From: Escherichia phage phi92
Direction: 5' to 3' (one strand)
DNA: 64,000 nt
Sequence record: NC_023693.1
Below are positions 1 to 52,114 of this stretch, piece by piece; the stretch's first letter is position 1; the number at the start of each line of letters is the position of its first letter. Both the position numbers and the translations under genes were made by a program. Under the pieces are notes generated by a model. It was not told where the DNA came from, did not search any database, and saw nothing but the letters and a program-made list of their open reading frames with translations.

Positions 1-137
1 AGCCTACTTTCTTAAAAGCGCAATAAATCAGAATTATCTTGATTTTTAGTCGGTTTTATAGTATAGAAAATATGTAAATGATAATCATTATCAGCTATCT
101 TCCACGGGTGGCACTATTTCACGCCAGATCATTTCAT

Positions 138-166
138 TTGACAAGGTGTATATAGATGTTTAGACT
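138..166 (+). promoter_or_regulatory. sigma70-like promoter (TTGACA-N17-TAGACT)
   Basis: TTGACA 138-143, 17 bp spacer, TAGACT 161-166; same architecture recurs about 10 times in the window. Confidence 0.35.
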
Positions 167-698
167 TGCCAAGCCATTGATTTACTTAGAATTTATCTGT
201 TTTGTTGTGAGTAGTACCTTTCTTGCTCAGAAAATAATCAAAAGTCTTATAAGTCATTGAATGATAATGCAAATGATAATTATTCTCATTGATATTTGAG
301 GGGGACGGTCGGCAGAAATCGGGGGGCGCTGAAAATCGCGTTAAGCACCTCTCGCAAGCGAGCAGTATTTTGCGGCAAGTTATTGATATTATTGACTTTA
401 CGCTTATGAAAAGGGGGGTGTGTCGAAATAAATCGGGTATACCGGAAAATTTTTGTGGCATAGATATTTATTTGTCTATATTATGTACAAAGGGGGTGTG
501 TTAAAAATATTAGGTATATATAGAATAATTGATAGGGAAATCCTATACTAATTCCTTCATTATTGCAGTGGGTGAAAGACAGAATTGAAGATGCAAATAA
601 TGCTTGCATTGAATAAAAATGTCTGTATAGTGGTTTGCATACCGCGCACGACGCGTTTCCATTTTCAATAAAATGTTAGCATTATGGGGAGGTAGAAA

Positions 699-1160
699 AT
701 GAGACAACTATCTATACTGGAAGCACATGTGCAATGTGTTGCAGATTATGTCAAAGAACACTCAAGTTTGTTGGATGTAACCTGTGCAGTGCAAAATGAT
801 GTAGGTATTGTCTGTGTGCGACATATCTTATCTGAAACTCGTTATGAAGTATTTCGTGCCAAGTTGTTTGGATGTGATCAAGTGCATGTAAACTTCTTGG
901 ATTCCAATTTTCGTTATGCTTTAGAAAATATTGATGATTATCTTCCTTGCTCTCCGACCGGATATGTGATGATAGCAGCAAATGAAGTAACACCAAACAA
1001 CAGTGAGCGGGAAACTTTGTTACGGAAGAAAATACGCCAACTGCAAGTGTTGAATGAACTGAAAGAAGAGATTGAAAAAGAACTGAAAGAAGATTTTGGT
1101 ATGCTTCCAAAAGACGCTTTGAAATGGTATGATGAACTAGGAGAGGAAAGTTATGAATAA
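699..1160 (+). CDS. hypothetical early protein (paralog of 6912-7163 product)
   Basis: 153 aa ORF; GGGGAGG SD 7 nt upstream; shares HxSLL..V....G...V.H.LS.T.Y.VF block with the 6912-7163 protein. Confidence 0.6.
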   Translation: MRQLSILEAHVQCVADYVKEHSSLLDVTCAVQNDVGIVCVRHILSETRYEVFRAKLFGCDQVHVNFLDSNFRYALENIDDYLPCSPTGYVMIAANEVTPNNSERETLLRKKIRQLQVLNELKEEIEKELKEDFGMLPKDALKWYDELGEESYE

Positions 1161-1329
1161 AGAAACTACTGTGTACTTAGTAACAAAGAATACCCCAGGC
1201 TGGAGCCAATGCAGCACTGTCCCTTACAAGATCTGTGCAACATTAGAACTAGCACAACGTGCAGAAGCAGAAGTGAATGCCATGCAATACAGCTATGGTG
1301 AAATCATTCCTTTTACTCTTGAACAATAA
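1153..1329 (+). CDS. small hypothetical protein (58 aa)
   Basis: ATG overlaps upstream stop (ATGAATAA), AGGAAAG SD; below the ORF-track length cutoff. Confidence 0.3.
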   Translation: MNKETTVYLVTKNTPGWSQCSTVPYKICATLELAQRAEAEVNAMQYSYGEIIPFTLEQ

Positions 1330-1340
1330 GGAGTTGTGTA

Positions 1341-1793
1341 ATGTTTGAAATTGGTAAAGTGTATCGTTTTAAGAACCCATCTTATATCCGTAAGTTTGCT
1401 AACGTGTCTGAGTGCAATAGCAGGATTGCTTCTTTTTTAGGTGATTCCTATTTTCGTGTATTAGATGTGGATGATTGGTATGGTGTCACTGCTTTGCAAT
1501 CCTTAGCAGGAGAACAAGAAATTATCGCTCAAAATGAAGGAGACTTTCTTCAGTGTTACACGTTGCTTGCAAAAAGTGAGTTTGAGTATTTTGTAGAAGT
1601 CTTAGAGGAAGCACCAAAAAGTAAACACGAAGAGAAATACTTGCTTGTAGTGGATGGAGTTCCAATCATGGAAACCATCTCCCGTGAGGAAGTTGAAAAA
1701 GAGGCGAAACGTTACAAGCTGGATCGTACACAGAGTGTAGTTGAAGTCTATTCTCTTGTTGGTGTTGCAGATATTAGTGTGAACATCGTATAA
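1341..1793 (+). CDS. hypothetical early protein
   Basis: 150 aa ORF, AAGGAG SD upstream. Confidence 0.6.
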   Translation: MFEIGKVYRFKNPSYIRKFANVSECNSRIASFLGDSYFRVLDVDDWYGVTALQSLAGEQEIIAQNEGDFLQCYTLLAKSEFEYFVEVLEEAPKSKHEEKYLLVVDGVPIMETISREEVEKEAKRYKLDRTQSVVEVYSLVGVADISVNIV

Positions 1794-1796
1794 TAT

Positions 1797-2009
1797 ATGT
1801 GTAATGACAGATACATTCTTCGTGTATCTGATAAGTCTCCTATGTTTGACTGGCGGGGCTGGTGGTTACTAGCTCCGATGCAAGGTCTGATAGACGTGGA
1901 AAAGGAGGCTTATGTGTATACAAAAGAAGAGATAGAAGATAGTCTTTATTTGACAGATAGCATTAAGAGTGGTATCTTTGAGTGTAAATTGAAAGGAGAG
2001 GAAGAATGA
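1797..2009 (+). CDS. hypothetical protein
   Basis: 70 aa ORF in same-strand array; weak SD, start uncertain. Confidence 0.4.
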   Translation: MCNDRYILRVSDKSPMFDWRGWWLLAPMQGLIDVEKEAYVYTKEEIEDSLYLTDSIKSGIFECKLKGEEE

Positions 2010-2305
2010 CTGTTACAGAAAAACTGCGCTGTATTGCAAAGCAAAGTGGAGAAGGTTTATGGTTTCCTATTGAGGAAATTATTCAGGACTGTTATGATCA
2101 GGCTAAGACTGGCAAATACTCCAAAGCATTTAAACCGTCTGTTTTCGGTTTGGATGACTATCCAAAAAATGAACAAGCAAAGAAACGACAAGTTGATTTG
2201 ATTGATCTTGCTATGGAAGCACTACGAGAGCATGGGCTTAGTAAGGTGTATGCTTTAAACACCAAAGAGGGCTTTGTAGATTCAGTGATCGTAGACTGGT
2301 ATTAA
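2006..2305 (+). CDS. hypothetical protein
   Basis: 99 aa ORF, GAAAGGAGAGG SD, start overlaps upstream stop. Confidence 0.55.
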   Translation: MTVTEKLRCIAKQSGEGLWFPIEEIIQDCYDQAKTGKYSKAFKPSVFGLDDYPKNEQAKKRQVDLIDLAMEALREHGLSKVYALNTKEGFVDSVIVDWY

Positions 2306-2314
2306 GGAGAAGTC

Positions 2315-2683
2315 ATGCAAGAGAATAGTAAAGTGTGTAGCATGAAAAGCAGCCCTTATTTGCTACAATTTTATGAGTGGTGGTTAGAACAAGAAGATAC
2401 AAACTTTAGCAAAAAGCATTATGGTCTTTGCACGTGTCTTGTAGACTTCTTATACAATATTGCTTGGATAAAAGATGTTGAGAGTGTATCAAAGCTCCAA
2501 TCCTCTGTACGAGAGGAAATGAAGGAACAGTTTAAGAAAGCGGGTTTGAACCATTTACATCCGTTTAATACGGATTTCTCGCACTACTTTACGGAAACAG
2601 AGCTAGGCATTGCACACCTTAATAAAGAACGTGTACAATGGGTGATTGATCGTATTCGTGATATGGAGGAATACAATGGTTAA
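2315..2683 (+). CDS. hypothetical protein (paralog of 3307-3891 product)
   Basis: 122 aa; AAGGAGAAG SD; shares LLQFY..W, LHPFN and HLNxxRxxWV blocks with the 3307-3891 protein. Confidence 0.6.
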   Translation: MQENSKVCSMKSSPYLLQFYEWWLEQEDTNFSKKHYGLCTCLVDFLYNIAWIKDVESVSKLQSSVREEMKEQFKKAGLNHLHPFNTDFSHYFTETELGIAHLNKERVQWVIDRIRDMEEYNG

Positions 2684-2894
2684 GTTTAAAACTTTCTGTG
2701 CAATCTCTGTTTGTCTTATTCTTGCATACGTGTTATTCTCTGGTATCATTCGTTTAGGTGAGTATATGGCAAGAGAAGCTCGTGAAAGTGAAGCTAAAAA
2801 AGAACAGTGTATTGTGTTCAAGCATCAAAGAGATGCTGAAAAGTTTCTCGCACTTGATTGCAATCGTTATGTATCTTATCAAATGTATGAGTAA
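2676..2894 (+). CDS. small membrane protein (paralog of 7387-7611 product)
   Basis: 72 aa from ATG 2676 (GGAGG SD); N-terminal hydrophobic helix; KEQCIVFKHQRDAEKFL block matches KEKCIILKHNKQAEDFL at 7387-7611. Confidence 0.55.
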   Translation: MVKFKTFCAISVCLILAYVLFSGIIRLGEYMAREARESEAKKEQCIVFKHQRDAEKFLALDCNRYVSYQMYE

Positions 2895-2903
2895 GGAGGA
2901 TTT

Positions 2904-3128
2904 ATGGTAAAACGTCTGGAATGGGATGCGTGTACTGCTCACGCTTGTCACTGTGATATTGTTGAAGATCCTAATGGAGAGATGGTGTATTATGAGGATT
3001 ACGAAGCATTGCACAATGCTGTGATTGCTTTACTGGATGATATTAGCTCACGCTATCCAGGACAACAGTTTACGTGTCCACATATCCAACTATTAGCCAA
3101 ACTTACGGAGTATCCAAGTGTTTCATAA
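2904..3128 (+). CDS. hypothetical Cys-rich protein (paralog of 8272-8535 product)
   Basis: 74 aa; AAGGAGG SD; CDIVEDPNGEMVYYEDYEAL matches CDIVPDPEGDYVLLADYNKL in the 8272-8535 protein. Confidence 0.55.
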   Translation: MVKRLEWDACTAHACHCDIVEDPNGEMVYYEDYEALHNAVIALLDDISSRYPGQQFTCPHIQLLAKLTEYPSVS

Positions 3129-3306
3129 TATGGGTGTCCCTGAACAACTCCTCTTTATTGTAGGATTAGTAGGCTTACTGGCGGCTGGCGCTAAAGCCGC
3201 TTCTCACACGCATCACATAATGTTAAGATTTCTATTCCTACTCCCTTCTATCCTCGTACTATTAGTCATACTGATCGATAACATTTTGCACAATTAAGGA
3301 GAGGTT

Positions 3307-3891
3307 ATGAGTAAAGTTATACCAAGCAGTTATGAATTATTGCAGTTTTATGTATATTACTTAGACTGGGTTAATAGATCGAATGTTAAAGACAATGCGA
3401 TGTTTAGTAAAAACATCTGTTTAACAGAAAGTATCTTCCGTTACTGGCACACAGGTAGAAAGTGTACACACAGTGAAGCTATGCGCATTGTAGGAGAATA
3501 TCTGGAGCAATTGCAAAAAGCAGAGCTACCTGTCCTTCACCCATTCAATGAATCTAAAGAAGAATTAGAACAAGAGTGTAGAGAAGGTAAGTGCCATTTG
3601 AATGAAAAACGTATCGAATGGGTGAGGCAACGTTTAGCCGATGCAGGAAAGACTCCTAGTGACTCTGACTATACGTGGTATGATGTAGAGGGTTTAGTTC
3701 AAGGTTTTGAGGCTTGTGCTATAGATAATACCAACTTTGCCAAAGTTTTATGCGAGGCTTATGACCTGGCAGATAAAATCCGAAATCATGGATGGAAACA
3801 AGAGCATAAAGAATCATATGAACGCCTTGACAAGATTTTCAAACAGATCTATTCTAACCACAAGAAGATGTTCCAAATGGAGGATGTGTAA
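3307..3891 (+). CDS. hypothetical protein (paralog of 2315-2683 product)
   Basis: 194 aa, AAGGAGAGG SD. Confidence 0.6.
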   Translation: MSKVIPSSYELLQFYVYYLDWVNRSNVKDNAMFSKNICLTESIFRYWHTGRKCTHSEAMRIVGEYLEQLQKAELPVLHPFNESKEELEQECREGKCHLNEKRIEWVRQRLADAGKTPSDSDYTWYDVEGLVQGFEACAIDNTNFAKVLCEAYDLADKIRNHGWKQEHKESYERLDKIFKQIYSNHKKMFQMEDV

Positions 3892-4577
3892 TGAAAGAGA
3901 TTATGTTTGAAGGGCATCGTTACGAAGTTCCAGACAATGCAAATTTCATGGCTCGTGATATCACTGGAGATGTGTTCTGGTTTGAAGATGAACCTGTGTT
4001 TTCTTCGAACAAACACTGGTTTTCACAACAATCTTCTTCGGAAAATATGACTTTTGGTTATGTAGAACCTAAAGTGCGCTGCAAAGCAGCTTCTTCTTTG
4101 GTAAAAATTTCCCAAGATGATCAAGAAAATACTCAAGATGTTGTTAGTGCGCTACTGAAGTACATTGCAGAACTTGAGAAGAAAATTAAAGAAGCAGAAA
4201 CTAAGGTGAAAGCACGATCAGCCATCATTGAAGCTATGTCTGAACGTATCTTAGAGCTAGAAGATTTGTGTGGAGAGGCTTATCAAGTGGTCGGTGCACT
4301 GGCTTATGAAGCACAAATGTTTGAAACTTCAGAACAAGTTTCACATATGTTAGATAATTTAAGTGAATGTAAAATGATTCATGATGATGTATTGCCATTT
4401 TGTTGCAATGTTAACAAAACAGAGCAAACAGAAGATTCAGAAACAGTTTATGTTCCGCTGATGTGTGTTCCAGATCATCTAAAAGGTGTATTCTCTTGTA
4501 AATGGTCACTGTTGAGCGTTACTAATTGTGGTGAAAACTATTCTGCCAACATTGAATTGCTAAAACACGTTAAATAA
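3891..4577 (+). CDS. hypothetical protein
   Basis: 228 aa, ATGA start/stop overlap with upstream gene. Confidence 0.6.
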   Translation: MKEIMFEGHRYEVPDNANFMARDITGDVFWFEDEPVFSSNKHWFSQQSSSENMTFGYVEPKVRCKAASSLVKISQDDQENTQDVVSALLKYIAELEKKIKEAETKVKARSAIIEAMSERILELEDLCGEAYQVVGALAYEAQMFETSEQVSHMLDNLSECKMIHDDVLPFCCNVNKTEQTEDSETVYVPLMCVPDHLKGVFSCKWSLLSVTNCGENYSANIELLKHVK

Positions 4578-4587
4578 GGAGAGTAAT

Positions 4588-4992
4588 ATGTGGTCTGTTA
4601 AAATCAAATATAATGCGCAGTATTATGGTGGAAAGCCTTACGAAGTTGTTATTTGTGACTGTATCTCTAAAGAAGTTGCACAGCTTTGTGGCGCTGGGGT
4701 TAGTGAAGCTATGAACAAAATGCATAACTCGACTGTGCGTTACCTGGATCAAGATATTCCAGAAGATGTAAATGATTATGCTTACGAAGTTATTTACAGT
4801 GAAGGTAAGAAGCTCTCTATTGAAGATGCACTTAAAGCACTACCTGCTATGTGCAACCCGACACCAGAAGCAGTTAAAGAGATTTCACCAGAATCCAACC
4901 CCGATGAATATGCTGCTATGGTTGCTTCGGACATGTGGAATCTCTGTCGAGAAACTATGATTAAAAATCTGGTGGAAATGGCGCATGAGTAA
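4588..4992 (+). CDS. hypothetical protein
   Basis: 134 aa, AAGGAGAG SD. Confidence 0.55.
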   Translation: MWSVKIKYNAQYYGGKPYEVVICDCISKEVAQLCGAGVSEAMNKMHNSTVRYLDQDIPEDVNDYAYEVIYSEGKKLSIEDALKALPAMCNPTPEAVKEISPESNPDEYAAMVASDMWNLCRETMIKNLVEMAHE

Positions 4993-5203
4993 AACACACT
5001 TTATACATCCGTTTGATCCAAAGAACAAGGCGGTTATACACCGCCGTTGGACTGAAACGCGCATTACAAAATGTCCTGTGCCAGCAGCACAGGAATATAA
5101 CAAAACATATAAAGCAGAATTTGTGGAGTACACCTTTGTAAATAACAAAGGGAAGGAGGTTTATGTTCCAGAATACTGCCTTTGGATAAAATGGGAGGAA
5201 TAA
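4985..5203 (+). CDS. hypothetical protein
   Basis: 72 aa, overlaps upstream stop. Confidence 0.5.
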   Translation: MSKTHFIHPFDPKNKAVIHRRWTETRITKCPVPAAQEYNKTYKAEFVEYTFVNNKGKEVYVPEYCLWIKWEE

Positions 5204-5204
5204 T

Positions 5205-5370
5205 GCAAACATTTTTTATCGACAAGTTCAATAAAAGTATGAACACGTGGATGGCAACATTCACTATGCAATTTGCGTCATTTAAAGAAGCTCAAGAATG
5301 GTGCGATCAACACAAGGATTTTGATTTTTACTATCAAGTTAATGCAAACCTTTCTCCAGAGGATAAATAA
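5205..5370 (+). CDS. hypothetical protein
   Basis: ATG at 5205 preceded by GGGAGG; in frame with track ORF 5182-5370. Confidence 0.4.
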
Positions 5371-5371
5371 T

Positions 5372-5716
5372 ATGTTGGCTGATATTGAAATCCTTATGTA
5401 CCGACAAGGTATGATCAAAATGTGGCTAGATTCTTTTAGCAACATATACTGCACAGTACGATCAGCAGACGAGCGTAAAACGCTTATTTTATCTGCTATT
5501 GTTGATAAACAACGTTTCTTCAAAGAAATTTTGCAAACAGGCTTCTCCGATGCAGGAGTAGAGATTGCAACGCTTAGTCTTGGAGTGCTGTCTTACTTGG
5601 AATCCGTTGTTTTATATGTCTTCTCTTTAGAGGAAGACTTGCAATTCGAAGCATTAAAACTTATCTTAGATGCTGCAATTGACATAGAACAAAATCGAAT
5701 TGATTCTTTTGAATAA
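5372..5716 (+). CDS. hypothetical protein
   Basis: internal ATG of track ORF 5273-5716 chosen so it does not overlap upstream gene; GAGGA SD. Confidence 0.5.
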   Translation: MLADIEILMYRQGMIKMWLDSFSNIYCTVRSADERKTLILSAIVDKQRFFKEILQTGFSDAGVEIATLSLGVLSYLESVVLYVFSLEEDLQFEALKLILDAAIDIEQNRIDSFE

Positions 5717-5731
5717 AATAAGGAGAAAACT

Positions 5732-6190
5732 ATGAAAGAGGTTAAACATTATCCACATGGTCGTAGTTTTGTAGCTGTATGGCATGTTCCTGCTCGTAAT
5801 GAACTATTTTGTGCATCTTTTCATTACAAAGATGGACAATATTTCACCTATGACGAAACGATGGATGATTTTATCCCAGAGTGCGATCATGGGTATACAC
5901 CAATGTTCTTTAAACGTATGAAAGCTCGTTTCTTCGTTACAGATGTTGATGGTGAACCTACTTGGCACATCGAAGAAGATTGGCAAGATTCTGTGGATAT
6001 TAAAGAAGCCCCAGAATGGGCTACATTACTGGTACACGTCAAAACCCCTACTCTTGACGTTATGGCGTGGGTTAATCATGATGATACCCATTACCAATAC
6101 ATAAATGGTAGCACAGAGATTTCTGGTGAGATTATTGGTCGTTGGAAGCCTACAAATCAGGTTGCTATTGTCGGGTATAAGACAGTATAA
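5732..6190 (+). CDS. hypothetical protein
   Basis: 152 aa, AAGGAGAA SD. Confidence 0.6.
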   Translation: MKEVKHYPHGRSFVAVWHVPARNELFCASFHYKDGQYFTYDETMDDFIPECDHGYTPMFFKRMKARFFVTDVDGEPTWHIEEDWQDSVDIKEAPEWATLLVHVKTPTLDVMAWVNHDDTHYQYINGSTEISGEIIGRWKPTNQVAIVGYKTV

Positions 6191-6191
6191 T

Positions 6192-6386
6192 ATGAAAAAT
6201 AGTGTAGATTGGGATGATTTATCCGATTTTGAAAAATGGTTCTTAGGTAGTGGTTGTTATGCAGATGGGGATCTCGAAAGAGATCCTTCTGGAAACTACA
6301 CTATGCCATTAACCCAAGGTTTTTATGAGTGCTGGTGCGCAGCACAAAACAACGTACTGAATAAGGAGACAACACAATGCAATTAA
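6192..6386 (+). CDS. hypothetical protein
   Basis: internal ATG of track ORF 6105-6386, abuts upstream stop. Confidence 0.4.
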   Translation: MKNSVDWDDLSDFEKWFLGSGCYADGDLERDPSGNYTMPLTQGFYECWCAAQNNVLNKETTQCN

Positions 6387-6616
6387 ACATCGGACAACCC
6401 ATTTTTGATGCAGATACTGGTCAATATGCAGTGATTGTTGCTCGTATGAGCGGTGATGACCTTATTGTTTCAGAACTACTCGGATCAGATCCGCAACTGC
6501 GCGTAGTATGTGACCTATATCTTCGAGACGAAAGTGATCGCATTGCACTGAAAGAAGATGGTATGCTCTACTATACCTGGACTAGAGATCCTGGGGTAAC
6601 GGAGGTAGAGGTATAA
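6377..6616 (+). CDS. hypothetical protein
   Basis: 79 aa, AAGGAGA SD. Confidence 0.5.
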   Translation: MQLNIGQPIFDADTGQYAVIVARMSGDDLIVSELLGSDPQLRVVCDLYLRDESDRIALKEDGMLYYTWTRDPGVTEVEV

Positions 6617-6915
6617 TGGTAAGGAATAGGGGTTTACATAAAAGAAGACACCTTACTTACTGGCATCGTAAAGTACATGAACCTGTATCAAAGAAAGAAT
6701 GGCAATATCTGCCTTATGGGAAGGAGCGAAGAAAGTATCTGTTAGCTCACTTAAGGGTACATGGTTCTCTTCCTGTTAACAGTAAGTGGCAATTGCAAAC
6801 AGCTTATGACGAAGATATGAAATATCTGTTAAAGAGAGGCATTATTTGCCTTGTTAAGATAGGACGATGGAAATCTCGTCAATCTTATATCGTACTTAAA
6901 CAGGAGAAACGATGA
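6616..6915 (+). CDS. hypothetical basic protein
   Basis: 99 aa, GGAGG SD, Lys/Arg rich. Confidence 0.5.
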   Translation: MVRNRGLHKRRHLTYWHRKVHEPVSKKEWQYLPYGKERRKYLLAHLRVHGSLPVNSKWQLQTAYDEDMKYLLKRGIICLVKIGRWKSRQSYIVLKQEKR

Positions 6916-7163
6916 ATATCAAAGATGTTGTAGCATACGTAGAAGATGAAGTTAAAAACCATACAAGTTTACTGAAAGTAATGGTTGTGGTTAAAGATGG
7001 TATTGGACAAGTAAACGTACAACATGTCTTATCTGACACTGTATATAATGTGTTTGAATGTAAAGAAACACCTCATGGAGTACGTGTGGTTTATATTGAT
7101 AACAATTTCAAAGAATGTGTGAGACATACCTTAGAAAATGAACTAAGGATCACAATCTTATGA
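6912..7163 (+). CDS. hypothetical protein (paralog of 699-1160 product)
   Basis: 83 aa, AGGAGA SD; paralog block as for 699-1160. Confidence 0.55.
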   Translation: MNIKDVVAYVEDEVKNHTSLLKVMVVVKDGIGQVNVQHVLSDTVYNVFECKETPHGVRVVYIDNNFKECVRHTLENELRITIL

Positions 7164-7333
7164 GTTATTATGTTGTACCTTATGCCAATAAGTGGAGAGT
7201 AAGAGAAACTTGTTTTCTATTCTCCTGGTGGGCTACGTTCGGAGATGGTTGTGGAAATGATACAGGAAAGCCTGTAGAGTACGACACAAAAGAAGAATGT
7301 GAACAGTGGATAAAATTAACACAAAGATGTTGA
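7160..7333 (+). CDS. small Cys-rich hypothetical protein (57 aa)
   Basis: ATGA overlap with upstream stop; below ORF-track cutoff. Confidence 0.3.
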   Translation: MSYYVVPYANKWRVRETCFLFSWWATFGDGCGNDTGKPVEYDTKEECEQWIKLTQRC

Positions 7334-7358
7334 CACGATCTTAACTTCTTGTTAGTAT
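7330..7358 (+). promoter_or_regulatory. sigma70-like promoter (TTGACA-N17-TAGTAT)
   Basis: TTGACA 7330-7335, TAGTAT 7353-7358, upstream of 7387 gene. Confidence 0.4.
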
Positions 7359-7386
7359 CAATGTGTACTAACGATAAGGAGGGTTT

Positions 7387-7611
7387 ATGAAGTCTGTAAA
7401 CAAGTTGCAACAATTTTTGTTATCAACAGCAATCTCTTTGCTTTTGTTAATTGGTATTCTGTATGGTGAATCTAACTTGTACAATCTACATAATGATGTA
7501 GAACAGAACAAAGAGAAGTGCATCATTCTAAAACACAATAAACAAGCAGAAGATTTCTTAAAGAATAAGTGTTACAACTACATTGATTATGAGGAGACAA
7601 ACAATGATTAA
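7387..7611 (+). CDS. small membrane protein (paralog of 2676-2894 product)
   Basis: 74 aa, AAGGAGGG SD, N-terminal hydrophobic helix. Confidence 0.5.
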   Translation: MKSVNKLQQFLLSTAISLLLLIGILYGESNLYNLHNDVEQNKEKCIILKHNKQAEDFLKNKCYNYIDYEETNND

Positions 7612-7846
7612 AGAATTAGGTATGCGAGTATACAGTGAGTGGACTCCAAGCAATGGCCCAGGAGTTGTTGCAGCTAAATGTATCAATGGTCGTATTGAGT
7701 ACCTGGAAGGGTATGAAGATAATGAAGAGTTAGTAGACTATGCTAAATCTTTTATTGAAGATGATACAGACTTTATTGTATTATATGATACAGGAGAGTT
7801 AGAGTATGGATATGATGGAGATGGGGATATCTTTGAACTTCAATAA
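7604..7846 (+). CDS. hypothetical acidic protein
   Basis: ATG 7604 with GAGGAGA SD; in frame with track ORF 7583-7846. Confidence 0.5.
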   Translation: MIKELGMRVYSEWTPSNGPGVVAAKCINGRIEYLEGYEDNEELVDYAKSFIEDDTDFIVLYDTGELEYGYDGDGDIFELQ

Positions 7847-8053
7847 GAGTAGTAAGTAAGGTATAAAGAGTATATAGTTAGTTATAGAGTTAGTAACATT
7901 ACATATACTCTTTCCATGTATAACATGGAATATTCTCTACCTCGCTATCGCTCGGTATATAAGATTAGGGTAGCATGTTTTTTACGAAAAGTAAAACTGT
8001 TTATACCGATTGATAGCAGGTTTTTAATAGATTCTATCTATGAGGAGTAGAAA

Positions 8054-8272
8054 GTGTACAAATTATATAAAGGAAAAGATAAGTTTACGGGTAATACATC
8101 TGGTTTCTATGTAACACCACGTGGCGTTGCCGTATTTGATTGGATTCCTGGTACTCCAGATCGTGAAATGATCTCTCTTGTAAAACTGTCGGAACAAGAG
8201 TACACTTACGGTGACATTACAACATTCTATTCTCGTGCAGAAAATCCAAAACTGATCGCGGAGTGGGAATAA
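8054..8272 (+). CDS. hypothetical protein
   Basis: 72 aa, GTG start with GAGGAG SD. Confidence 0.5.
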   Translation: MYKLYKGKDKFTGNTSGFYVTPRGVAVFDWIPGTPDREMISLVKLSEQEYTYGDITTFYSRAENPKLIAEWE

Positions 8273-8535
8273 TGGTTACACGATATGGTTTAGAGGTGTA
8301 CAGCCAAGGTGCTGCTGGTCAATGTGATATTGTACCAGATCCAGAAGGAGACTATGTTCTTCTTGCTGATTACAACAAGCTAGAAGAAAGACTTCTGGCT
8401 GTGTATGCTAAAGAGAACAAAACAATCTGTCCTTATTGCAATGGAATGGGTTGGGTGGTTGCAGATGTTGGACAAATGTATGAATGTGTACCTTGTAAAA
8501 CCACAGGCTTTATTGAAAAGGATACTGACAAATGA
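8272..8535 (+). CDS. hypothetical Cys-rich protein (paralog of 2904-3128 product)
   Basis: ATG 8272 overlapping upstream stop; CPYC...CVPC motif. Confidence 0.5.
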   Translation: MVTRYGLEVYSQGAAGQCDIVPDPEGDYVLLADYNKLEERLLAVYAKENKTICPYCNGMGWVVADVGQMYECVPCKTTGFIEKDTDK

Positions 8536-8780
8536 CTGTAGCAGATAAAATGAGAGAACTGGCAGAAAACGCAGAACTTAACAAAGCAAAGGAGAGTTTA
8601 CAAAACATCTACGCGTATATTGAAAGAGCAGCTAAAGATGGAGACAGAGAAGCTGCTATATACACGCTTTATCCAACTTTTGTAAAAGTTAGCTTGGATG
8701 CTGAAGGTTTTTCAACTTTTATTGATACAGAAACATCTCATTATGATGAAAACTTTACTCGAATAGTTATTCGATGGTAA
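8532..8780 (+). CDS. hypothetical protein
   Basis: 82 aa, ATGA overlap. Confidence 0.5.
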   Translation: MTVADKMRELAENAELNKAKESLQNIYAYIERAAKDGDREAAIYTLYPTFVKVSLDAEGFSTFIDTETSHYDENFTRIVIRW

Positions 8781-8885
8781 ATTTCTGACATTTATGCGCC
8801 CTGGCTACCTGGGCGTAATAAATTCAGCTTATATTTGATCCGCGCCTTCGGCGCTTAGGCAAAGCCACGCCACATAGGAGAGTTT

Positions 8886-9296
8886 ATGTTCAAATGGTTA
8901 AAAGAGTTTCTAACATCTTTGGCAGAACCTAAGCAAGATGTTATTAAAAGCTCTATCACAGGAAAACCGCTTGTTATAGTTACAGGCGGCTTTGGTCATG
9001 GGTTTTCTCTTAAACAAACAGATATAGGTTTACAAGGGTGTCTGATTAGTTTTAGAATCACTCAATTAGGAGATAATAGACAAACAATCTTAGATCTTTT
9101 CAATGGGGAGTTTGATGATTATTTATCTAAGAGTGATAAAGAACGTCTGATCGAGCATATAAAACATCGCTATGAGCATGGTGGTTACTATTTAGAGACA
9201 AAACGTAATTCACAAGGTAATCTTGACATAGTTAGCACAGCGTGGGATAATGAATTTAAAACTAAACTTGGTAAACTTCTGGAGGAGTTATGGTAA
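8886..9296 (+). CDS. hypothetical protein
   Basis: 136 aa, AGGAGAG SD. Confidence 0.55.
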   Translation: MFKWLKEFLTSLAEPKQDVIKSSITGKPLVIVTGGFGHGFSLKQTDIGLQGCLISFRITQLGDNRQTILDLFNGEFDDYLSKSDKERLIEHIKHRYEHGGYYLETKRNSQGNLDIVSTAWDNEFKTKLGKLLEELW

Positions 9297-9472
9297 ATAT
9301 TAAAACAGGTGATATTGTACGTCTTGCCAGTGAAGAAATGTTAATGACTGTAATGGTATCTACTTATGATACTTGCGAAGTAGTGTGGTTTGATGTTAAT
9401 GAGCAACTACAGAAAGCTACATTTGATAAACGTATGCTTCGTAAAGTTGAAGAAGTGAAGGAGGAAGAATAA
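9290..9472 (+). CDS. hypothetical protein
   Basis: 60 aa ORF overlapping upstream stop. Confidence 0.45.
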   Translation: MVNIKTGDIVRLASEEMLMTVMVSTYDTCEVVWFDVNEQLQKATFDKRMLRKVEEVKEEE

Positions 9473-9473
9473 T

Positions 9474-9686
9474 ATGGGAATGTTGCTTCGTGTTTTTGTG
9501 TTTCTTATGTTCTGGATTATCGTTGGTAACGGTATTGTATTTTTGATTTTTCCTGAAGTAATGACAGGTAATGGAAATAAAGCAGTGCCTTACATTATGC
9601 TTATCGGTTACGGCATTGGTACACTTGGATTACTGTTTGCTGACTGGTTAGTCAATACTTTGTTCCTTAAGTACAGGAACAACTAA
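9474..9686 (+). CDS. small membrane protein
   Basis: 70 aa, AAGGAGGAAG SD, two hydrophobic segments. Confidence 0.5.
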   Translation: MGMLLRVFVFLMFWIIVGNGIVFLIFPEVMTGNGNKAVPYIMLIGYGIGTLGLLFADWLVNTLFLKYRNN

Positions 9687-9687
9687 T

Positions 9688-9960
9688 ATGTCGGAAAAAT
9701 TACCTAATGTTTTCTTTTGTTTTGTAGATTGTGTTACACAAGAAATTATAGTTGACGAAGAAGGTATGTTTACTTATTTTGCATCTGAAGAAGAGGCAAA
9801 ACTATCAGCTATGAAATGTATAAGCCAATTGTCAGTACCTGCTGTCAACAGGTTCGGTATTGCACAGGTGTATAAAACAGTAACAGAGTTTACACCAGAT
9901 CGAAAACTAACTTTTCTTAACGTTCACTTTGTTTGTAAGTTTAGTGAACTACGACATTAA
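9688..9960 (+). CDS. hypothetical protein
   Basis: 90 aa ORF. Confidence 0.5.
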   Translation: MSEKLPNVFFCFVDCVTQEIIVDEEGMFTYFASEEEAKLSAMKCISQLSVPAVNRFGIAQVYKTVTEFTPDRKLTFLNVHFVCKFSELRH

Positions 9961-9973
9961 ATCAGGAGTAAAA

Positions 9974-10573
9974 ATGAAAGAATATTGGAGTGGTGAGAAG
10001 GGCTTACTAAAGCCAGGAATGCTTTTACGAGTAAAGAACATGTTGATCACACAAGATTACATAATGCCTAATCCTGGAGCATTAGTAGAATTCCTTACTG
10101 CGCGAGATCAACCTGGGGTTGGTGAAATGTGGATTGTAACGTGGATATCTCTCGATGGTAAATTGCGCGTTGCTCCTATTGACCCAAAACACCTAGAATC
10201 TCCTTACGCCAGTATTGATCCTCGGATCATAGATTTGGCTAGAGTTTATAAAGCTCGGACTGGTGTAGAATTAAATGTGGAAATTTTAAATCAATGTATT
10301 GACTTCTTACCGGAAAAAGTGCATAATGCTCAACAAGAAGGTAACGGTTTAGAAGTTGTTCTTCTTAATGATGGGATGTTCTCTGGTTTGGCATCCGTAG
10401 ATTTTCCAATAACATTAAGATTGTTACCTGGAGAATATGTACTGGATGAAGATACTATTGCTATATCCTCTAAAATTTTAGAACTCATTCCAGGTGCAAG
10501 GTGTGTTGGTGATACATCTTCCTTGCTGTTTACTCTGAATGAAGAAGCCATTATAGTTAAAAAGGAGAAGTAA
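9974..10573 (+). CDS. hypothetical protein
   Basis: ATG 9974 with AGGAG SD; in frame with track ORF 9929-10573. Confidence 0.55.
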   Translation: MKEYWSGEKGLLKPGMLLRVKNMLITQDYIMPNPGALVEFLTARDQPGVGEMWIVTWISLDGKLRVAPIDPKHLESPYASIDPRIIDLARVYKARTGVELNVEILNQCIDFLPEKVHNAQQEGNGLEVVLLNDGMFSGLASVDFPITLRLLPGEYVLDEDTIAISSKILELIPGARCVGDTSSLLFTLNEEAIIVKKEK

Positions 10574-10728
10574 ATGATGACGTTTATTGTTGGTGTTGTT
10601 GTTGGTTATTTTGGTCACAAGTATCAGGATGTTATCATCGCTAAAGTTGACGAAGTAATCGAAAAATTTAAACACTAATTTTTAAAAGGCTGTACTGCTG
10701 TGCAGCCTATCTTTCAAAGGAGAGTAAA

Positions 10729-10902
10729 ATGTTCAAAGATACCCATTATAAATGTGTACATTGTGGTAAATCTTTTGGTGATCACAAAGCTAAAACATTC
10801 AATTGTCCACGAAAAGGGCGGGGTAGCTTTAAAGGTTTTAATCCATCCCACGTTTATTCTCCCAACTACGAGAAACCAGAAGAAGAAAAATTTGTAATCT
10901 GA
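10729..10902 (+). CDS. small zinc-ribbon-like protein (57 aa)
   Basis: AAGGAGAG SD then ATG; CxxC...C pattern (YKCVHCGK...FNCPRKG); preferred over SD-less track ORF 10700-10897. Confidence 0.4.
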   Translation: MFKDTHYKCVHCGKSFGDHKAKTFNCPRKGRGSFKGFNPSHVYSPNYEKPEEEKFVI

Positions 10903-10911
10903 GGAGGCAAT

Positions 10912-11199
10912 ATGGAACTAGTGCAAGAAGTTTATGAAAAACTGAAAGAAGAGAATCTTGATTGGCCTGAACATGCTCTTATTGTCGTCAAAGATACTAA
11001 TGGTGAAATAAAATTCTCAAGTGTAAGTGAAGATGATGTTGTTTTAAGTCCTACAGGATATTATATGAGAGGTGTTACGTGTCTATTCAACACCAAAGTG
11101 TATCCTGAAGTTAAACTTAGTTACGGTGAACCTGATCATCCAGAAATCGTTACACGTAATGAATATGAAAATTATTATTTTGCTCGTGAAAGCAAATAA
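10912..11199 (+). CDS. hypothetical protein
   Basis: 95 aa, GAGGAGG SD. Confidence 0.55.
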   Translation: MELVQEVYEKLKEENLDWPEHALIVVKDTNGEIKFSSVSEDDVVLSPTGYYMRGVTCLFNTKVYPEVKLSYGEPDHPEIVTRNEYENYYFARESK

Positions 11200-11207
11200 G
11201 GAAAACT

Positions 11208-11531
11208 ATGCAAAAAATAAACACTGGTTCTCGTCCTAAACAGAAGCAAACAAAAGCAAGGGTATCTTATATTGATAACTCTTGTTATAATTTCAAAAAT
11301 GTTAAAGAAGTCATCATTGATGAAAAAGAAGGTTTGATTCACATTTCATCTGAACGTTTGAAAGGTAGTGTTACTCTTCGTGAGAATGTATCTATACCTA
11401 TGAAAGTTGTGGCTACACTCTGTGTTGATAAACCAGATGTTGCTAACTATTATGTGTTCCGTGATAATCGTATTTCATTACATAATAAGATTTTTAAATC
11501 TTCACACGTTAAAACAAAACACCTTGTATAA
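11208..11531 (+). CDS. hypothetical protein
   Basis: 107 aa, AAGGAAA SD. Confidence 0.55.
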   Translation: MQKINTGSRPKQKQTKARVSYIDNSCYNFKNVKEVIIDEKEGLIHISSERLKGSVTLRENVSIPMKVVATLCVDKPDVANYYVFRDNRISLHNKIFKSSHVKTKHLV

Positions 11532-11536
11532 CACAT

Positions 11537-11560
11537 AAACCCGCTTCGGCGGGTTTTCTT
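11537..11560 (+). terminator. rho-independent terminator
   Basis: AAACCCGC-TTCG-GCGGGTTT hairpin followed by TTCTT. Confidence 0.5.
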
Positions 11561-11618
11561 GTATGTGTGTTCTTTATTTGTTATAAGTATTTTCTTAGCA
11601 TAAACAATAGGAGGTATT

Positions 11619-11840
11619 ATGTCTGTAGTTGTAGAAGGTAGTATTGGTTTCTTAGTAGATAACCCTCACCCTTTCGTGGTTAAGGTTCATATTCAAGAAA
11701 AGGTAAGCAACAATACGTGGTTGTGTTTGTTAGATAGTAAGATACACTCTTATACAGAGGTTTATCTTCACACTTGGCAAATTGGTACGATAACAGCAGA
11801 GGATGAATTGATAATTGAACTATATGAACGAGATCTATAG
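11619..11840 (+). CDS. hypothetical protein
   Basis: 73 aa, AGGAGG SD. Confidence 0.5.
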   Translation: MSVVVEGSIGFLVDNPHPFVVKVHIQEKVSNNTWLCLLDSKIHSYTEVYLHTWQIGTITAEDELIIELYERDL

Positions 11841-11914: not shown

Positions 11915-11953
11915 AAATAAAGCCCCTAGAATCGCTTCTAGGGGCTTTTGTTT
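11915..11953. terminator. bidirectional rho-independent terminator at the plus/minus convergence point
   Basis: perfect 10 bp stem GCCCCTAGAA-tcgc-TTCTAGGGGC flanked by A-run upstream and TTTTGTTTG downstream. Confidence 0.6.
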
Positions 11954-13727: not shown

Positions 13728-14339
13728 TTATACCAGACTTTTAAGGTACTTGTCAAGGGCTTCTTGATCACCTTGACAAACATAGCAACGGAAGTCTTGA
13801 GCAGAAGGTTCTTTGTCCTCGTCCCAATCCCAATAGACAGTACCTTTATAGCGTGAGCCTGGGAACTCGAAGTATGCCACATGAGTAATATGGTGTGGGC
13901 CACCCCAAAACTCTGTAAAAGTAAATTGAGGATACGCTGCTTTAACTGTATTTTCAAACCAAGTTTTACGATCTAATGCTTCGTTTATAAAATAAGCATG
14001 GCGTTCCATTTCATCCCAATCTTTCCAAACGCATTTTTCATCCAGAGAGAAAACAAAATTTTCACTGTTAAACTCGTCTGTATCTGATTCCAAAATATCA
14101 TAGTCATGTGCACTAGGTATCCACCATCCAGCTTCTAATAGTGCTTTTGCAGGTACAAAACCTTTTTCAGCGTATTGGTCAAATTCTTTTACTCTACGTA
14201 CAGTGCAGTATTCATCTTCACCACCAATGTCCAATAGACAAGCGCCTCTGCGTCTTGCTGCAAGACCATGTGTATCAAAAACTACAACGCTACCTTCACC
14301 ATCTTCACGATCTACTTGATATGCAACTTTTTGAGTCAT
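13728..14339 (-). CDS. hypothetical protein
   Basis: 203 aa ORF. Confidence 0.55.
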   Translation of the reverse strand: MTQKVAYQVDREDGEGSVVVFDTHGLAARRRGACLLDIGGEDEYCTVRRVKEFDQYAEKGFVPAKALLEAGWWIPSAHDYDILESDTDEFNSENFVFSLDEKCVWKDWDEMERHAYFINEALDRKTWFENTVKAAYPQFTFTEFWGGPHHITHVAYFEFPGSRYKGTVYWDWDEDKEPSAQDFRCYVCQGDQEALDKYLKSLV

Positions 14340-14462
14340 ATTACCCCCAATGTATATGGGAAATTACCCAAAAGATAAATTCCCAAAAACACCAACCAAG
14401 AAAAGTTAATGGAATTATAAAAGCTATCAGAACAGTTTTCCAGCCTTTCCACAATGTTTCCA

Positions 14463-15452
14463 TTATTCCCCCATAGATTTAAGAATATGTGCAATGACAG
14501 GTATAGTCCAACCGTTGCCTAACATCTTATATGCTTGTGTGTTACTACTCACTTTAAAGTAATCGTCTGGAACACCTTGTAAGCGGCAACACTCTTTAAC
14601 CGTTAACTTTCTATAATGTACGCCTTCACTCAATTTTTCAAAAGCATCTAGATATCTTCCAGGTGGAATGTAGGCTAATAGTACGTCTTTAGGCACAGTC
14701 GTGAGGCAACGAGTTTTTTCACTGTTCTGAACTTCCAAACAATGTACCAAACGATCAGTTTTAGATGTACTACGTTTGCCATTTTCATTAATTCTACGCC
14801 CATATATTGCTGCTGGATAAAAAACCAGTTGTCTGCGACTCTTTTCAAAATACTGTTCTATATTACCACCTTTGGCATAATTTGCATCTATGCAATAAGC
14901 CTTATCTCTGTCTACAATACTATCATCTTCAATGATATCTTGCAACACTTCATTGGTAATATCCCAGGGTTTTATTTCCCAGTTGCACCAGTATAAACGT
15001 TGTCTATTCTGTGCCGTGAAATCTGCGGAGTTAATGAATACGGGATCAACACCTAAGTAACTTGTGATCACGTTTTCCCACTCCACTTTCATCTTAACGT
15101 TTTCAAGCATGAACTTAACATTAGGGTTAAACTTTTTAATATGTTCAAGAATCTCAACATATTCGAAGAATAGCTTAGATCGCGGATCTTGAAAGTTCAA
15201 ACCTTTACCAGAAGAAGAGAAGCCTTGACACGGACTACCACCTAACAAAAGATCAATTTCTCCCCACGGAATATCCCATTCTCTCCATTTTGTAACATCA
15301 CCTAACTGAATAATATCTGGAAAATTTGCTTGGCTTTCAGCTATGGCGAATTTGTCTAATTCTGAAGCATAATATGTATCTACTTCAATACCTGCACTTT
15401 TTAGCGCAAGCATTCCTCCTGACATACCATCAAAAAGACTTAAAACTTTCAT
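14463..15452 (-). CDS. DNA (cytosine-5)-methyltransferase
   Basis: motif I LSLFDGMSGG, motif IV GSPCQGFS, motif VI ENV, motif VIII QNRQR. Confidence 0.85.
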   Translation of the reverse strand: MKVLSLFDGMSGGMLALKSAGIEVDTYYASELDKFAIAESQANFPDIIQLGDVTKWREWDIPWGEIDLLLGGSPCQGFSSSGKGLNFQDPRSKLFFEYVEILEHIKKFNPNVKFMLENVKMKVEWENVITSYLGVDPVFINSADFTAQNRQRLYWCNWEIKPWDITNEVLQDIIEDDSIVDRDKAYCIDANYAKGGNIEQYFEKSRRQLVFYPAAIYGRRINENGKRSTSKTDRLVHCLEVQNSEKTRCLTTVPKDVLLAYIPPGRYLDAFEKLSEGVHYRKLTVKECCRLQGVPDDYFKVSSNTQAYKMLGNGWTIPVIAHILKSMGE

Positions 15453-20667: not shown

Positions 20668-21169
20668 AATAGAAAGGTTGAGTTAAACCCAGCCTGTTTT
20701 TTGGGTCGTAGACGTACCAAGCATATGCTGTCTTATCAGTACCACCTGCAACAAAAGATGGTCGTTCAGAAAGAACAATCAAATTTGTTGGTGGATTCTG
20801 TTTATGGAATTCCCTTCGTTTAATAGACTCTAGGAACCCAAGACGCAACAAGTATATGCAAACGTCTGCTTCTTTTAAGCTCTTTTGCAAGAACTCAAGT
20901 GCAAGTCTGAATGGTGGATTTGTGATTATAATATCCGGCTTAGTATGCCATTCGTGGTTAAAATAATCCTTCCCTTCTTCTAACTCACAATATTCTGATC
21001 CTTCTGGAAAATGTTGATAAATTGCAGCAGCAGCACCTTTACACGGTTCTGCAAAAATAAAACCTTCTTCTTTAAGGTTATTAAAATCTATTACACTAAA
21101 TAATGCATTTATACATTTTTGTGGAGTAGGATAGTAATCAGTTGGTGGACGATCATACTTATTTGCCAC
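20660..21169 (-). CDS. DNA N6-adenine methyltransferase (phage Dam-like)
   Basis: DYYPTP and IITNPPF (motif IV) in a 169 aa protein. Confidence 0.65.
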   Translation of the reverse strand: MANKYDRPPTDYYPTPQKCINALFSVIDFNNLKEEGFIFAEPCKGAAAAIYQHFPEGSEYCELEEGKDYFNHEWHTKPDIIITNPPFRLALEFLQKSLKEADVCIYLLRLGFLESIKRREFHKQNPPTNLIVLSERPSFVAGGTDKTAYAWYVYDPKNRLGLTQPFYFV

Positions 21170-21587
21170 TACTTAAAATCTCCTCTTTTGTGATTTCAGG
21201 GTCTTCTTCAAAAACCATAATATCTCTTAAGAACGTTAATTCTTCCATAGATACTGGTATTGTATCTTCTTCTGTTTTTCGTTTACATAAATCGTCAAGA
21301 AAGTTTTTAAAGTTTTCTGACAAATCGTAAAATTTCAACAGTTGATAATCACAGGAGGAGATCCTATCCAGTTCTAACATTCTTTCTAAGATATTTTCTG
21401 TGTTGCCATACAGCACACGAACTTCTCCGAAAGGGTTGACTGAATATTGTGAAGTTCTGAACCATCCCTTTTTAGATACAGTGTAACGCTGTTCTGCTAA
21501 ACTTTCAATAAAATTTTTAGCTCTTTTACAGTTTTGTTCTAAAGAGTAGTAGGCTTTTTCTACAAAGGTTACAGGTACTGGTAACAT
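21159..21587 (-). CDS. hypothetical protein
   Basis: 142 aa. Confidence 0.5.
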   Translation of the reverse strand: MLPVPVTFVEKAYYSLEQNCKRAKNFIESLAEQRYTVSKKGWFRTSQYSVNPFGEVRVLYGNTENILERMLELDRISSCDYQLLKFYDLSENFKNFLDDLCKRKTEEDTIPVSMEELTFLRDIMVFEEDPEITKEEILSSGK

Positions 21588-24260: not shown

Positions 24261-24527
24261 TTACTCCGCAATCTGAGCCATGAATTCACGTAGTTCAGAA
24301 AAACCTCCTACGTGGGTTAGCTGTTCACCATCTTCCACAAAAATCTGAGGAAATGTGCGTGGTAGAACACCTGTTTTCTCTAAAACCAGATTCTGAATCT
24401 GATCTAAAGAATAGTCTTCATCTAAGGTAAGGTATTTAAAATCCTGTTCACGCTGTTCTAGTAGAATCTTAGCGTTAGTGCAGAAAGGACAATTTGGTTT
24501 ACCGTAGATAATAAAATTCATTTTCAC
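24261..24527 (-). CDS. glutaredoxin (NrdH/Grx-like)
   Basis: CPFC active site near N-terminus, 88 aa. Confidence 0.75.
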   Translation of the reverse strand: MKMNFIIYGKPNCPFCTNAKILLEQREQDFKYLTLDEDYSLDQIQNLVLEKTGVLPRTFPQIFVEDGEQLTHVGGFSELREFMAQIAE

Positions 24528-27992: not shown

Positions 27993-28319
27993 TTACCAAA
28001 CGTGTTGAGAAATAATAGTTTCCGTTTCAATGTTATATTTTTCAAGAAGTTGTGCATAGGCTTCTTTTGCATTTTTATTTAGTTGCTCAAGATCTACAGC
28101 TACACTTCCTTCGTCACCTTCTAAATAAATGCCATATATGCAATAAGATTCATCAGCGTCATAGAAAGGAGAGATACGACTTAAATCAAGACCTTCTTGT
28201 AAGAACCAGTTAAAGTCTCCATCAAATTCTTCTTCAATTCTAGGATCTTCTCCTACAGCTTCTTCCCATTTATTAAAAGGTGCGCCCTGTAACATACGCC
28301 ATTCAATATTAGTCCCCAT
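27993..28319 (-). CDS. hypothetical protein
   Basis: 108 aa. Confidence 0.5.
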   Translation of the reverse strand: MGTNIEWRMLQGAPFNKWEEAVGEDPRIEEEFDGDFNWFLQEGLDLSRISPFYDADESYCIYGIYLEGDEGSVAVDLEQLNKNAKEAYAQLLEKYNIETETIISQHVW

Positions 28320-51700: not shown

Positions 51701-51731
51701 TTTAAAAGGAGGTGCTATGCATCTCCTATAT

Positions 51732-51817: not shown

Positions 51818-51833
51818 ACACCTAAAAAATATC

Positions 51834-51862: not shown

Positions 51863-51873
51863 TACTATGAAAA

Positions 51874-52108: not shown

Positions 52109-52114
52109 AATTCA

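Follow-up and report, generated by a model that had tools for sequence, protein, structure and literature searches.

The left end of this coliphage genome carries small genes whose translations resemble one another in pairs, which raises the question of whether they descend from an ancient segmental duplication of one early cassette, as the first-pass annotation proposed, or reached their present arrangement by different routes. The window analysed here covers the left-hand 64 kb of a phi92-like phage of the genus Justusliebigvirus, 98.3% identical to PaulScherrer/Bas60. Its plus strand contains, from 699 to 11840, an array of about 37 small, co-oriented and presumably early accessory genes, delimited through the ORF list, the PaulScherrer annotation and a GC-skew strand switch, and closed by a bidirectional terminator found by terminator search at 11919-11948. 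Nearly all of these genes are annotated as 'hypothetical' in PaulScherrer, and those with enough substitutions show pN/pS values of ~0.03-0.4. Early expression of the array genes is plausible; a sigma-70 scan yielded 50 sites against 44.7 +/- 5.7 in shuffled sequences, i.e. no enrichment. Naming the paired families A to D, the gene order A, 1341-homolog, 2006-homolog, B, C, D is common to the window, phAPEC8 and ESCO5. The literature search returned neither an account of these paralogs nor a transcriptome.

The four pairs are true homologs, as blastp, shuffle tests and reciprocal PHROG cross-matches agree. All eight coordinates coincide with annotated CDSs of the near-identical PaulScherrer, and the motifs originally quoted for the pairs are all found in the translations. 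An all-versus-all blastp over the 128 window ORFs places A (699/6912; E 1.7e-10, 44% identity, 71 aa), B (2315/3307; E 8e-10, 31%, 114 aa), C (2676/7387; E 5e-7, 45%, 31 aa) and D (2904/8272; E 1.4e-4, 41%, 32 aa) at ranks 1, 2, 4 and 5 among all ORF pairs. The protein-level pairwise alignments suggested as a check (Smith-Waterman against 2000 shuffles) give z values of 18, 16, 15 and 9 and Gumbel p values of 3e-11, 6e-10, 1.5e-9 and 4e-6 for A, B, C and D, respectively, and out of 666 array-gene pairs these four alone pass the Bonferroni correction. The eight genes match their PHROG families at E 1e-25 to 1e-139. The two members of each pair are placed in separate PHROG families (A in 14944 and 27423; B in phrog_2510, 27059 and 6418, with pVOG VOG7392 alongside; C in 15662 and 23204; D in 23083, 22955 and 23941), all labelled 'unknown function', and none of the families drew a meaningful match in sequence searches of Pfam, NCBIfam and PDB. 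The pairs are short, and D, the weakest, has only ~32 residues in common, its similarity being confined to the N-terminal 32-45 residues, as would suit chance matches between short, compositionally biased segments. However, none of the 2000 shuffles attains the observed score in any pair, the independent PHROG profiles cross-match reciprocally for every pair, and all copies are conserved across phages. Chance similarity, which would have undone the original proposal, is thus of practically negligible probability.

The count of pairs also appears complete within the searches made. HMMs of A and B run against the pooled array proteins of four phages revealed no further members, and PHROG scans of 20 additional array genes no further pairs. 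Three candidates were discarded: outra_172, equal in length to the longer A protein, shows no homology to A; the pair 2006-2305/8532-8780, two genes that carry the annotation 'putative transcription factor' and whose products begin with MTV..K.R, has no significant similarity by blastp or shuffle test; and the 7160/7916 pair (p 9e-5) narrowly misses the Bonferroni threshold and was taken as chance.

The two A genes differ in history. A1 (699-1160, plus strand; 153 aa, phrog_14944 at E 1e-96) is modelled by AF2 (pLDDT 78.5) with an alpha/beta domain at its N-terminus (residues 1-80), a disordered linker and a helical C-terminal tail, and shares 92% amino acid identity with phAPEC8_0023. Together with 62 bp upstream it forms a plus-strand cassette (637-1164) that in blastn is 93.9% identical at the nucleotide level to Phapecoctavirus phAPEC8, while the flanking genes reach at most 74% nucleotide identity between the genera or are undetectable. 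The cassette is absent from phage outra, about three quarters of the genus members lack A1, and SD2 has a different allele. Hence, A1 is an exchangeable allele, recently swapped between genera, in an ancestral slot that heads a block syntenic with Phapecoctavirus. Immediately upstream, blastn identifies on the plus strand (566-641) a remnant of a deleted B-family gene, consisting of its 3' terminal part and intergenic DNA; two B-family gene ends, phAPEC8 7674-7749 and outra 3203-3278, match it at 94.7% and 87% identity, respectively. A2 (6912-7163, plus strand; 83 aa, phrog_27423) consists solely of the N-terminal A domain, falls outside the whole set of A1 alleles in the tree and occurs at full length in Justusliebigvirus only; it is a truncated, long-diverged paralog fixed in that genus.

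The C genes encode small peptides. C1 (2676-2894, plus strand; 72 aa, phrog_15662) is predicted to cross the membrane once or to be held there by a signal anchor, carries a conserved motif with two Cys residues at its C-terminus, and is 44% identical to the sole Phapecoctavirus copy. Its diverged paralog C2 (7387-7611, plus strand; 74 aa, phrog_23204), preceded by a predicted sigma-70-like site at 7330-7358, is confined to Justusliebigvirus among 50,697 phage records; the genus thus has its own, diverged second copy of this small membrane-anchored peptide.

Family D is modular. D1 (2904-3128, plus strand; 74 aa, phrog_23083 and phrog_23941) combines a Cys/His-rich N-terminal module with a C-terminal part also present in a 151-aa Phapecoctavirus protein, and its two halves occur apart in Wifcevirus and Kagunavirus phages. 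In D2 (8272-8535, plus strand; 87 aa) a D-type N-module (~8272-8424), found in Justusliebigvirus only, precedes a CxxC..CxxC zinc ribbon (~8425-8535). The N-part matches D1 (shuffle p 4e-6) and the C-part the phAPEC8 zinc-ribbon gene at 21119-21316 (p 1e-14), so that D2 is a chimera of a D-type N-terminal module and a resident zinc-ribbon gene. The neighbouring gene between C2 and D2 (8054-8272, plus strand), placed by protein clusters and synteny, has a Phapecoctavirus homolog that adjoins the zinc-ribbon gene; this adjacency is therefore ancestral, and the D module joined by a separate grafting step. A third small zinc-ribbon ORF related to the D2 C-terminus lies on the minus strand at 28309-28449 (46 aa; blastp E 1.7e-4, shuffle p 1e-6). 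The D1/D2 resemblance extends to a DNA repeat of 38 nt (79% identical), which shared residues and AT-rich codon use explain, and which hence gives no evidence of recency. Assigning D1 as a Lar-like restriction alleviation protein (phrog_3592/PF14354) was rejected, the match spanning no more than positions 4-50 of the 182 (E 8.7e-4), with no Pfam match at E<=1. Likewise, a link to Ksap2 (the KpAvs2 trigger, Bas60_220) was rejected, its one tblastn match in the window being a 9-residue CDIVEDxNG string in common with D1 (E 0.41).

Family B is of another scale. B1 (2315-2683, plus strand; 122 aa, phrog_2510 at E 1e-25) consists of one all-alpha B domain with six helices in the AF2 model (pLDDT 90), whereas B2 (3307-3891, plus strand; 194 aa, phrog_27059 and phrog_2510) adds to its B domain (~3307-3663) a C-terminal domain (~3664-3891) that Phapecoctavirus encodes as a gene of its own; this part matches phAPEC8 14331-14558 (p 1e-8). 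A HMMER profile scan (E<=1e-3) recovers the ~105-aa domain in 1919 clusters at 50% identity, compared with the single cluster given by a word-indexed protein search with B1. Membership is borne out by full-length profile matches and the conserved L-FY, GLC, PFN and H-N--R--WV motifs, and three outra B genes already carry the label pVOG VOG7392. Structural relatives of the domain exist in many unrelated phages, and no sequence relative was found in Pfam, NCBIfam or PDB. Copy numbers vary, with at least seven in phAPEC8, four in outra, two in this window and two to four in Justusliebigvirus, and cassette exchange between genera is also visible for a left-end B gene. The tree is star-like, B1 and B2 being among its most distant members (29% identity), and their divergence is older than the split of the two genera. 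As a side observation, the near-invariant Cys39, His101, Asn103 and Arg106 of the domain adjoin the conserved PFN loop in sequence; B2 lacks the Cys and has Thr40 in its place.

Whether one event can account for this arrangement depends mainly on A, C and D. Their order is indeed present twice on the plus strand, at offsets of 6.2, 4.7 and 5.4 kb (about 6 kb in the first-pass annotation). The order by itself has p 0.066, and order plus compactness p 0.003, a combination chosen post hoc. The second copies, A2, C2 and the N-module of D2, keep this collinear order inside a 1.6-kb stretch and are restricted to Justusliebigvirus. This pattern is consistent with some duplication within the lineage or earlier, and could reflect one ancient duplication of an A-C-D cassette disrupted later, its other pairs erased by loss, insertion and divergence; the similar divergence of the three pairs (30-45% identity) points the same way. 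Against this, only three of the ~8 genes per block have partners, no others emerging by blastp, shuffle test or PHROG, and the second block is interrupted by the resident 8054-8272 gene, which parts C2 from D2, and by the zinc-ribbon half of the chimeric D2, both adjacent in Phapecoctavirus too. Moreover, A1 is a recent exchange missing from most of the genus, and B1 and B2 are members of an old and large multigene family. Apparent ages may differ as well, within the limits of such short sequences: the D2 N-module is nearer to D1 than to Phapecoctavirus D (p 4e-6 versus 0.0025), whereas A2 and C2 fall outside the inter-genus orthologs. Taken together, the data argue weakly for one segmental duplication, which we regard as somewhat unlikely; from the first-pass annotation a real and old paralogy is retained, and the copying of a single cassette is not.

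The second copies might instead be xenologs, acquired by recombination with a diverged, unsampled relative. Inter-genus exchange is seen directly for A1 and the left-end B gene, and the paralogs have diverged further than inter-genus orthologs. However, no donor lineage emerged: among 5.8 billion proteins searched, A and D are confined to Stephanstirmvirinae, and C2 stays within its genus in the phage records searched, which makes this origin unlikely.

The reading that we find rather probable is that of a plastic accessory array in which four true homologies arose by different processes and whose products would be early, non-essential proteins of takeover, exclusion or counter-defence. B1 and B2 are two old members of a very large all-alpha family that is multi-copy in this phage subfamily; the A1 allele was swapped between genera, and A2 is a truncated paralog retained in Justusliebigvirus; C2 is a diverged copy of a C1-type peptide, specific to the genus; and the grafting of a D-type N-module onto a resident zinc-ribbon gene produced D2. 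An old B family, a swapped A1, a copied C2 and a joined D2 show that recurrent small duplications, shuffling of domains, exchange of cassettes and deletion shape the array.

As to function, the putative role in host takeover, exclusion or counter-defence is plausible from the variability, genomic position and small size of the genes. The products, presumably non-essential and made early in infection, would probably bind host or competitor-phage components, acting in takeover, superinfection exclusion or counter-defence, and duplicates that were kept may have diverged towards different targets. Efficient anti-restriction by the array is argued against by the reported unusual sensitivity of phi92-like phages to restriction-modification systems (PMC8594841). 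PaulScherrer labels A1 and D2 'putative DNA-binding protein', which together with the D2 zinc ribbon might indicate phage transcription regulators or DNA-binding proteins, a role that we judge very unlikely. More specific schemes, quite unlikely when taken jointly, are that A, C and D form a functionally linked early module of three parts, in which A would be the soluble alpha/beta protein, C a membrane peptide facing the periplasm and D an adaptor rich in Cys, or that B is a new ligand-binding or catalytic counter-defence family. In the former case Justusliebigvirus would keep two diverged versions, e.g. two exclusion or counter-defence specificities; in the latter, copy number would grow in an arms race.

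The array displays the routes by which the accessory genes of a therapeutically used phage group diversify: a multigene family of old standing, the swapping of alleles between genera and the grafting of domains. The range of hosts lysed by phi92-like phages is very broad (PMC8594841). For host-range or defence-evasion genetics in the BASEL phage Bas60, it would be reasonable to start with the variable A1 slot and the differences in B copy number, and B itself is a very large phage domain family with a confident all-alpha predicted fold, no Pfam entry and no solved relative.

Compared with known systems, the pattern is ordinary plasticity for a large virulent phage and not surprising. T4-like and other large lytic phages carry hyperplastic regions, or plastic peripheries, of small co-oriented accessory genes, mostly of unknown function. 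Like this array, such regions are polymorphic for gene presence or absence, contain paralogs and exchange cassettes among related phages; in contrast to T4-like phages, the array belongs to another lineage (Stephanstirmvirinae) and to other gene families. A likeness to the lambdoid 'ea'/Ead-Ea22-type genes beside xis/int is seen in one B-family member, a domain of a 306-aa prophage protein encoded directly upstream of xis/int, and in the D N-module that heads a 199-aa coiled-coil/repeat protein in a Wifcevirus; unlike those genes, each domain in the window forms a small gene by itself, the phage is a virulent myophage, and no Pfam family links them. The D2 C-terminus, with CPYCNGMG ... CVPCKTTG, recalls DnaJ-type zinc fingers and anti-TRAP through weak PF00684, PF15777 and NCBIfam RtpA matches, but these score far under the curated cut-offs (16 bits against a 32.7-bit gathering threshold for the DnaJ CXXCXGXG zinc finger, PF00684, which was rejected), and D2 has a single zinc-ribbon unit without a J domain. 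Finally, in the poxvirus 'genomic accordion' host-interaction genes are amplified and then diverge. Duplication followed by divergence is common to both, but the copies in this array are dispersed, partly chimeric and, at 30-45% identity, old rather than recent tandem amplifications.

The four paralog pairs proposed by the first-pass annotation, A (699-1160 and 6912-7163), B (2315-2683 and 3307-3891), C (2676-2894 and 7387-7611) and D (2904-3128 and 8272-8535), are real. In an all-versus-all blastp of the 128 window ORFs they take ranks 1, 2, 4 and 5 (E 1.7e-10, 8e-10, 5e-7 and 1.4e-4, respectively), the third rank going to RmlD/RmlB (24524-25354 and 26796-27785, minus strand, E 2e-8), which is an ordinary relationship between two dTDP-rhamnose pathway enzymes of SDR fold. 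Smith-Waterman scores of the four pairs lie above all 2000 shuffles (z 9 to 18), and independent PHROG profiles yield reciprocal cross-hits for each of them. The possibility that the alignments were below significance was checked by shuffling, and among 666 pairs of array genes A-D are the only ones to pass Bonferroni correction. Compared with other Justusliebigvirus genomes, A2, B1, B2, C2, D1 and D2 (1 and 2 denoting the left and right copies) show pN/pS of ~0.03-0.4, hence six or more of the eight are kept under purifying selection, substitutions in C1 and A1 being too few for this judgement.

All eight genes lie in an accessory array of ~37 small genes on the plus strand (699-11840), delimited from GC skew and ORF lists and closed by a bidirectional terminator (11919-11948), beyond which genes for replication and nucleotide metabolism form a long block on the minus strand. 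Megablast of 600-8600 matches 123 phage records, best Escherichia phage PaulScherrer (Bas60, Justusliebigvirus, Stephanstirmvirinae; 98.3% identity, 100% of the query), whose CDS annotation reproduces all eight coordinates under labels that are nearly all 'hypothetical'. The 'Campylobacter phage' records A150, C3, A110a and B15 match these E. coli phage genes at 88-99% identity, and their host labels are probably wrong. Window 1-698 forms the end of a noncoding region, ~1.5-1.75 kb long, lying before the array in both this genus and the related Phapecoctavirus (counterparts at outra locus 768-2518 and phAPEC8 5512-7022; outra is 97% identical to window 1-565), and no Rfam family matches it. 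Two GC-rich hairpins occupy the intergenic gap 8781-8885, 5' of gene 8886-9296, and the phAPEC8 annotation places hairpin-like 'PHIRE promoters' before several array genes. Genes 1341-1793, whose N-terminus matches a GoF-like PHROG (E 3e-6), and 8054-8272 are single-copy here, each corresponding to a tandem pair of paralogs in Phapecoctavirus (phAPEC8 8909/9368 and 20669/20898). Elsewhere in the window, 15 tRNA genes cluster at 51625-54544 (plus strand), one of which (52508-52583) has no anticodon assignable by ARAGORN.

Family A, for which a search of 5.8 billion proteins gave members in this phage subfamily only, is an exchangeable cassette plus a fixed truncated paralog. A1 with 62 bp upstream (637-1164) shares 93.9% nucleotide identity with phAPEC8 8393-8920, all other array genes being at most 74% identical between genera or undetectable. 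In most Justusliebigvirus genomes similarity to the window begins only at ~1141-1153; outra carries four other genes at the A1 position, two of them of family B, and window 566-641 is the remnant 3' end of a B gene like those. A further A1 allele is found in SD2, and A1 and A2 occur together in only 12-13 of ~54 genus records. Since the order in phAPEC8 and ESCO5 (A, 1341-homologs, the homolog of the gene starting at 2006, B, C, D1-homolog) is that of window 699-3128, the A1 slot is ancestral. A2 comprises the N-terminal domain only and shares 31-38% identity with each A1 allele, against 47-92% for these among themselves, and therefore branches outside all of them. The A1 C-terminal tail EEIEKELKEDFGMLPKDALKW (~1040-1160) is identical across alleles whose N-domains are only ~50% identical; it recombines independently of the N-domain and may be a conserved binding peptide.

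Similarity between D1 and D2 is confined to the N-terminal 32-45 residues. The D2 C-terminus is a CxxC..CxxC ribbon highly similar to a separate 65-aa phAPEC8 protein (p 1e-14) with an unrelated N-terminus. The Phapecoctavirus ribbon gene comes after the 8054-8272 homologs, as D2 does after 8054-8272; hence this adjacency is ancestral and a D-type module was grafted onto a resident zinc-ribbon gene. The D2 N-module is closer to D1 (p 4e-6) than to Phapecoctavirus D (p 0.0025). The module also moves independently: D1 residues 1-37 begin a 199-aa coiled-coil/repeat protein of a Wifcevirus, and residues 25-70 are present in a Kagunavirus. Of family C, Phapecoctavirus has a single copy, to which C1 is 44% identical, and C2 is found in Justusliebigvirus only, with a sigma-70-like site just 5' of it. 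C1 and C2 are ~73 aa long and combine a single hydrophobic segment with a C-terminal motif in which two Cys are conserved; we infer a disulfide-bonded domain facing the periplasm.

The first-pass reading of an ancient segmental duplication is supported only in part. A single event, disrupted later, would account for A2, C2 and the D2 N-module being collinear with A1, C1 and D1, genus-specific and within 1.6 kb, the A-C-D order having p 0.066, or 0.003 with compactness added post hoc. However, the blocks contain no further gene pairs, the second is interrupted by a resident gene, D2 is chimeric, the apparent ages of the duplicates are unequal and A1 is a recently swapped allele missing from most genus members, making a single duplication unlikely. 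We conclude that the region evolved via several small events; for the accessory array of a phage, such plasticity is ordinary.

Family B is old and very large. Pooled arrays of the window, outra, phAPEC8 and ESCO5 give one 20-member cluster (two copies in the window, four in outra, at least seven in phAPEC8) with a star-like tree, B1 and B2 being among its most distant members (29% identity). The C-terminal 75 residues of B2 resemble a separate phAPEC8 gene directly 3' of a B gene (p 1e-8); hence B2 is a fusion, or Phapecoctavirus underwent fission, and the B1/B2 split is older than both genera. Among 1.84 billion representative proteins the B profile matches 1919 clusters at E<=1e-3, of which 1005 reach E<=1e-10. 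Some of the matching proteins have two or three B domains in tandem, and one member is part of a larger prophage protein (306 aa) encoded directly 5' of xis/int. Pfam and NCBIfam give no hit for the window proteins or for ten diverse family members, and the PDB contains no sequence relative. Foldseek against viral models finds uncharacterised phage proteins, often several per genome, from phages of Pectobacterium, Rhizobium, Burkholderia, Delftia, Achromobacter, Klebsiella and Pseudomonas. Nearly invariant are L16, F19, Y20, G37-L38-C39, Q72-F73, P83-F84, N103, R106, W109 and V110, E68, N85 and H101 being conserved in 75-89% of sequences; the family's Cys position is Thr in B2. This large uncharacterised domain family without a Pfam entry is a modest by-product of the analysis.

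A sigma-70 scan shows no enrichment, with single good sites at 138-166 and 7330-7358, and a literature search found no transcriptome of this phage group. To judge from where the genes lie, how small and variable they are, and the occurrence of related domains in a prophage setting, the A-D products are most likely early-made accessory proteins that bind host or rival-phage components. Ksap2, the known KpAvs2 trigger of Bas60 (PMC11564622), is distinct from the A-D genes and absent from the window: the 111-aa protein (Bas60_220) is encoded in the PaulScherrer nrdB-nrdA interval, and an unrelated 218-aa ORF (29975-30631, minus strand) holds that position here, hence this phage lacks Ksap2. The Ksap2 C-terminal CDIVEDLNG resembles the D1 motif CDIVEDPNG (2952-2978) over 9 residues, which is not significant (E 0.41). 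Finally, unusual sensitivity to restriction-modification systems is reported for phi92-like phages (PMC8594841), and this speaks against a strong anti-restriction effect of the array.
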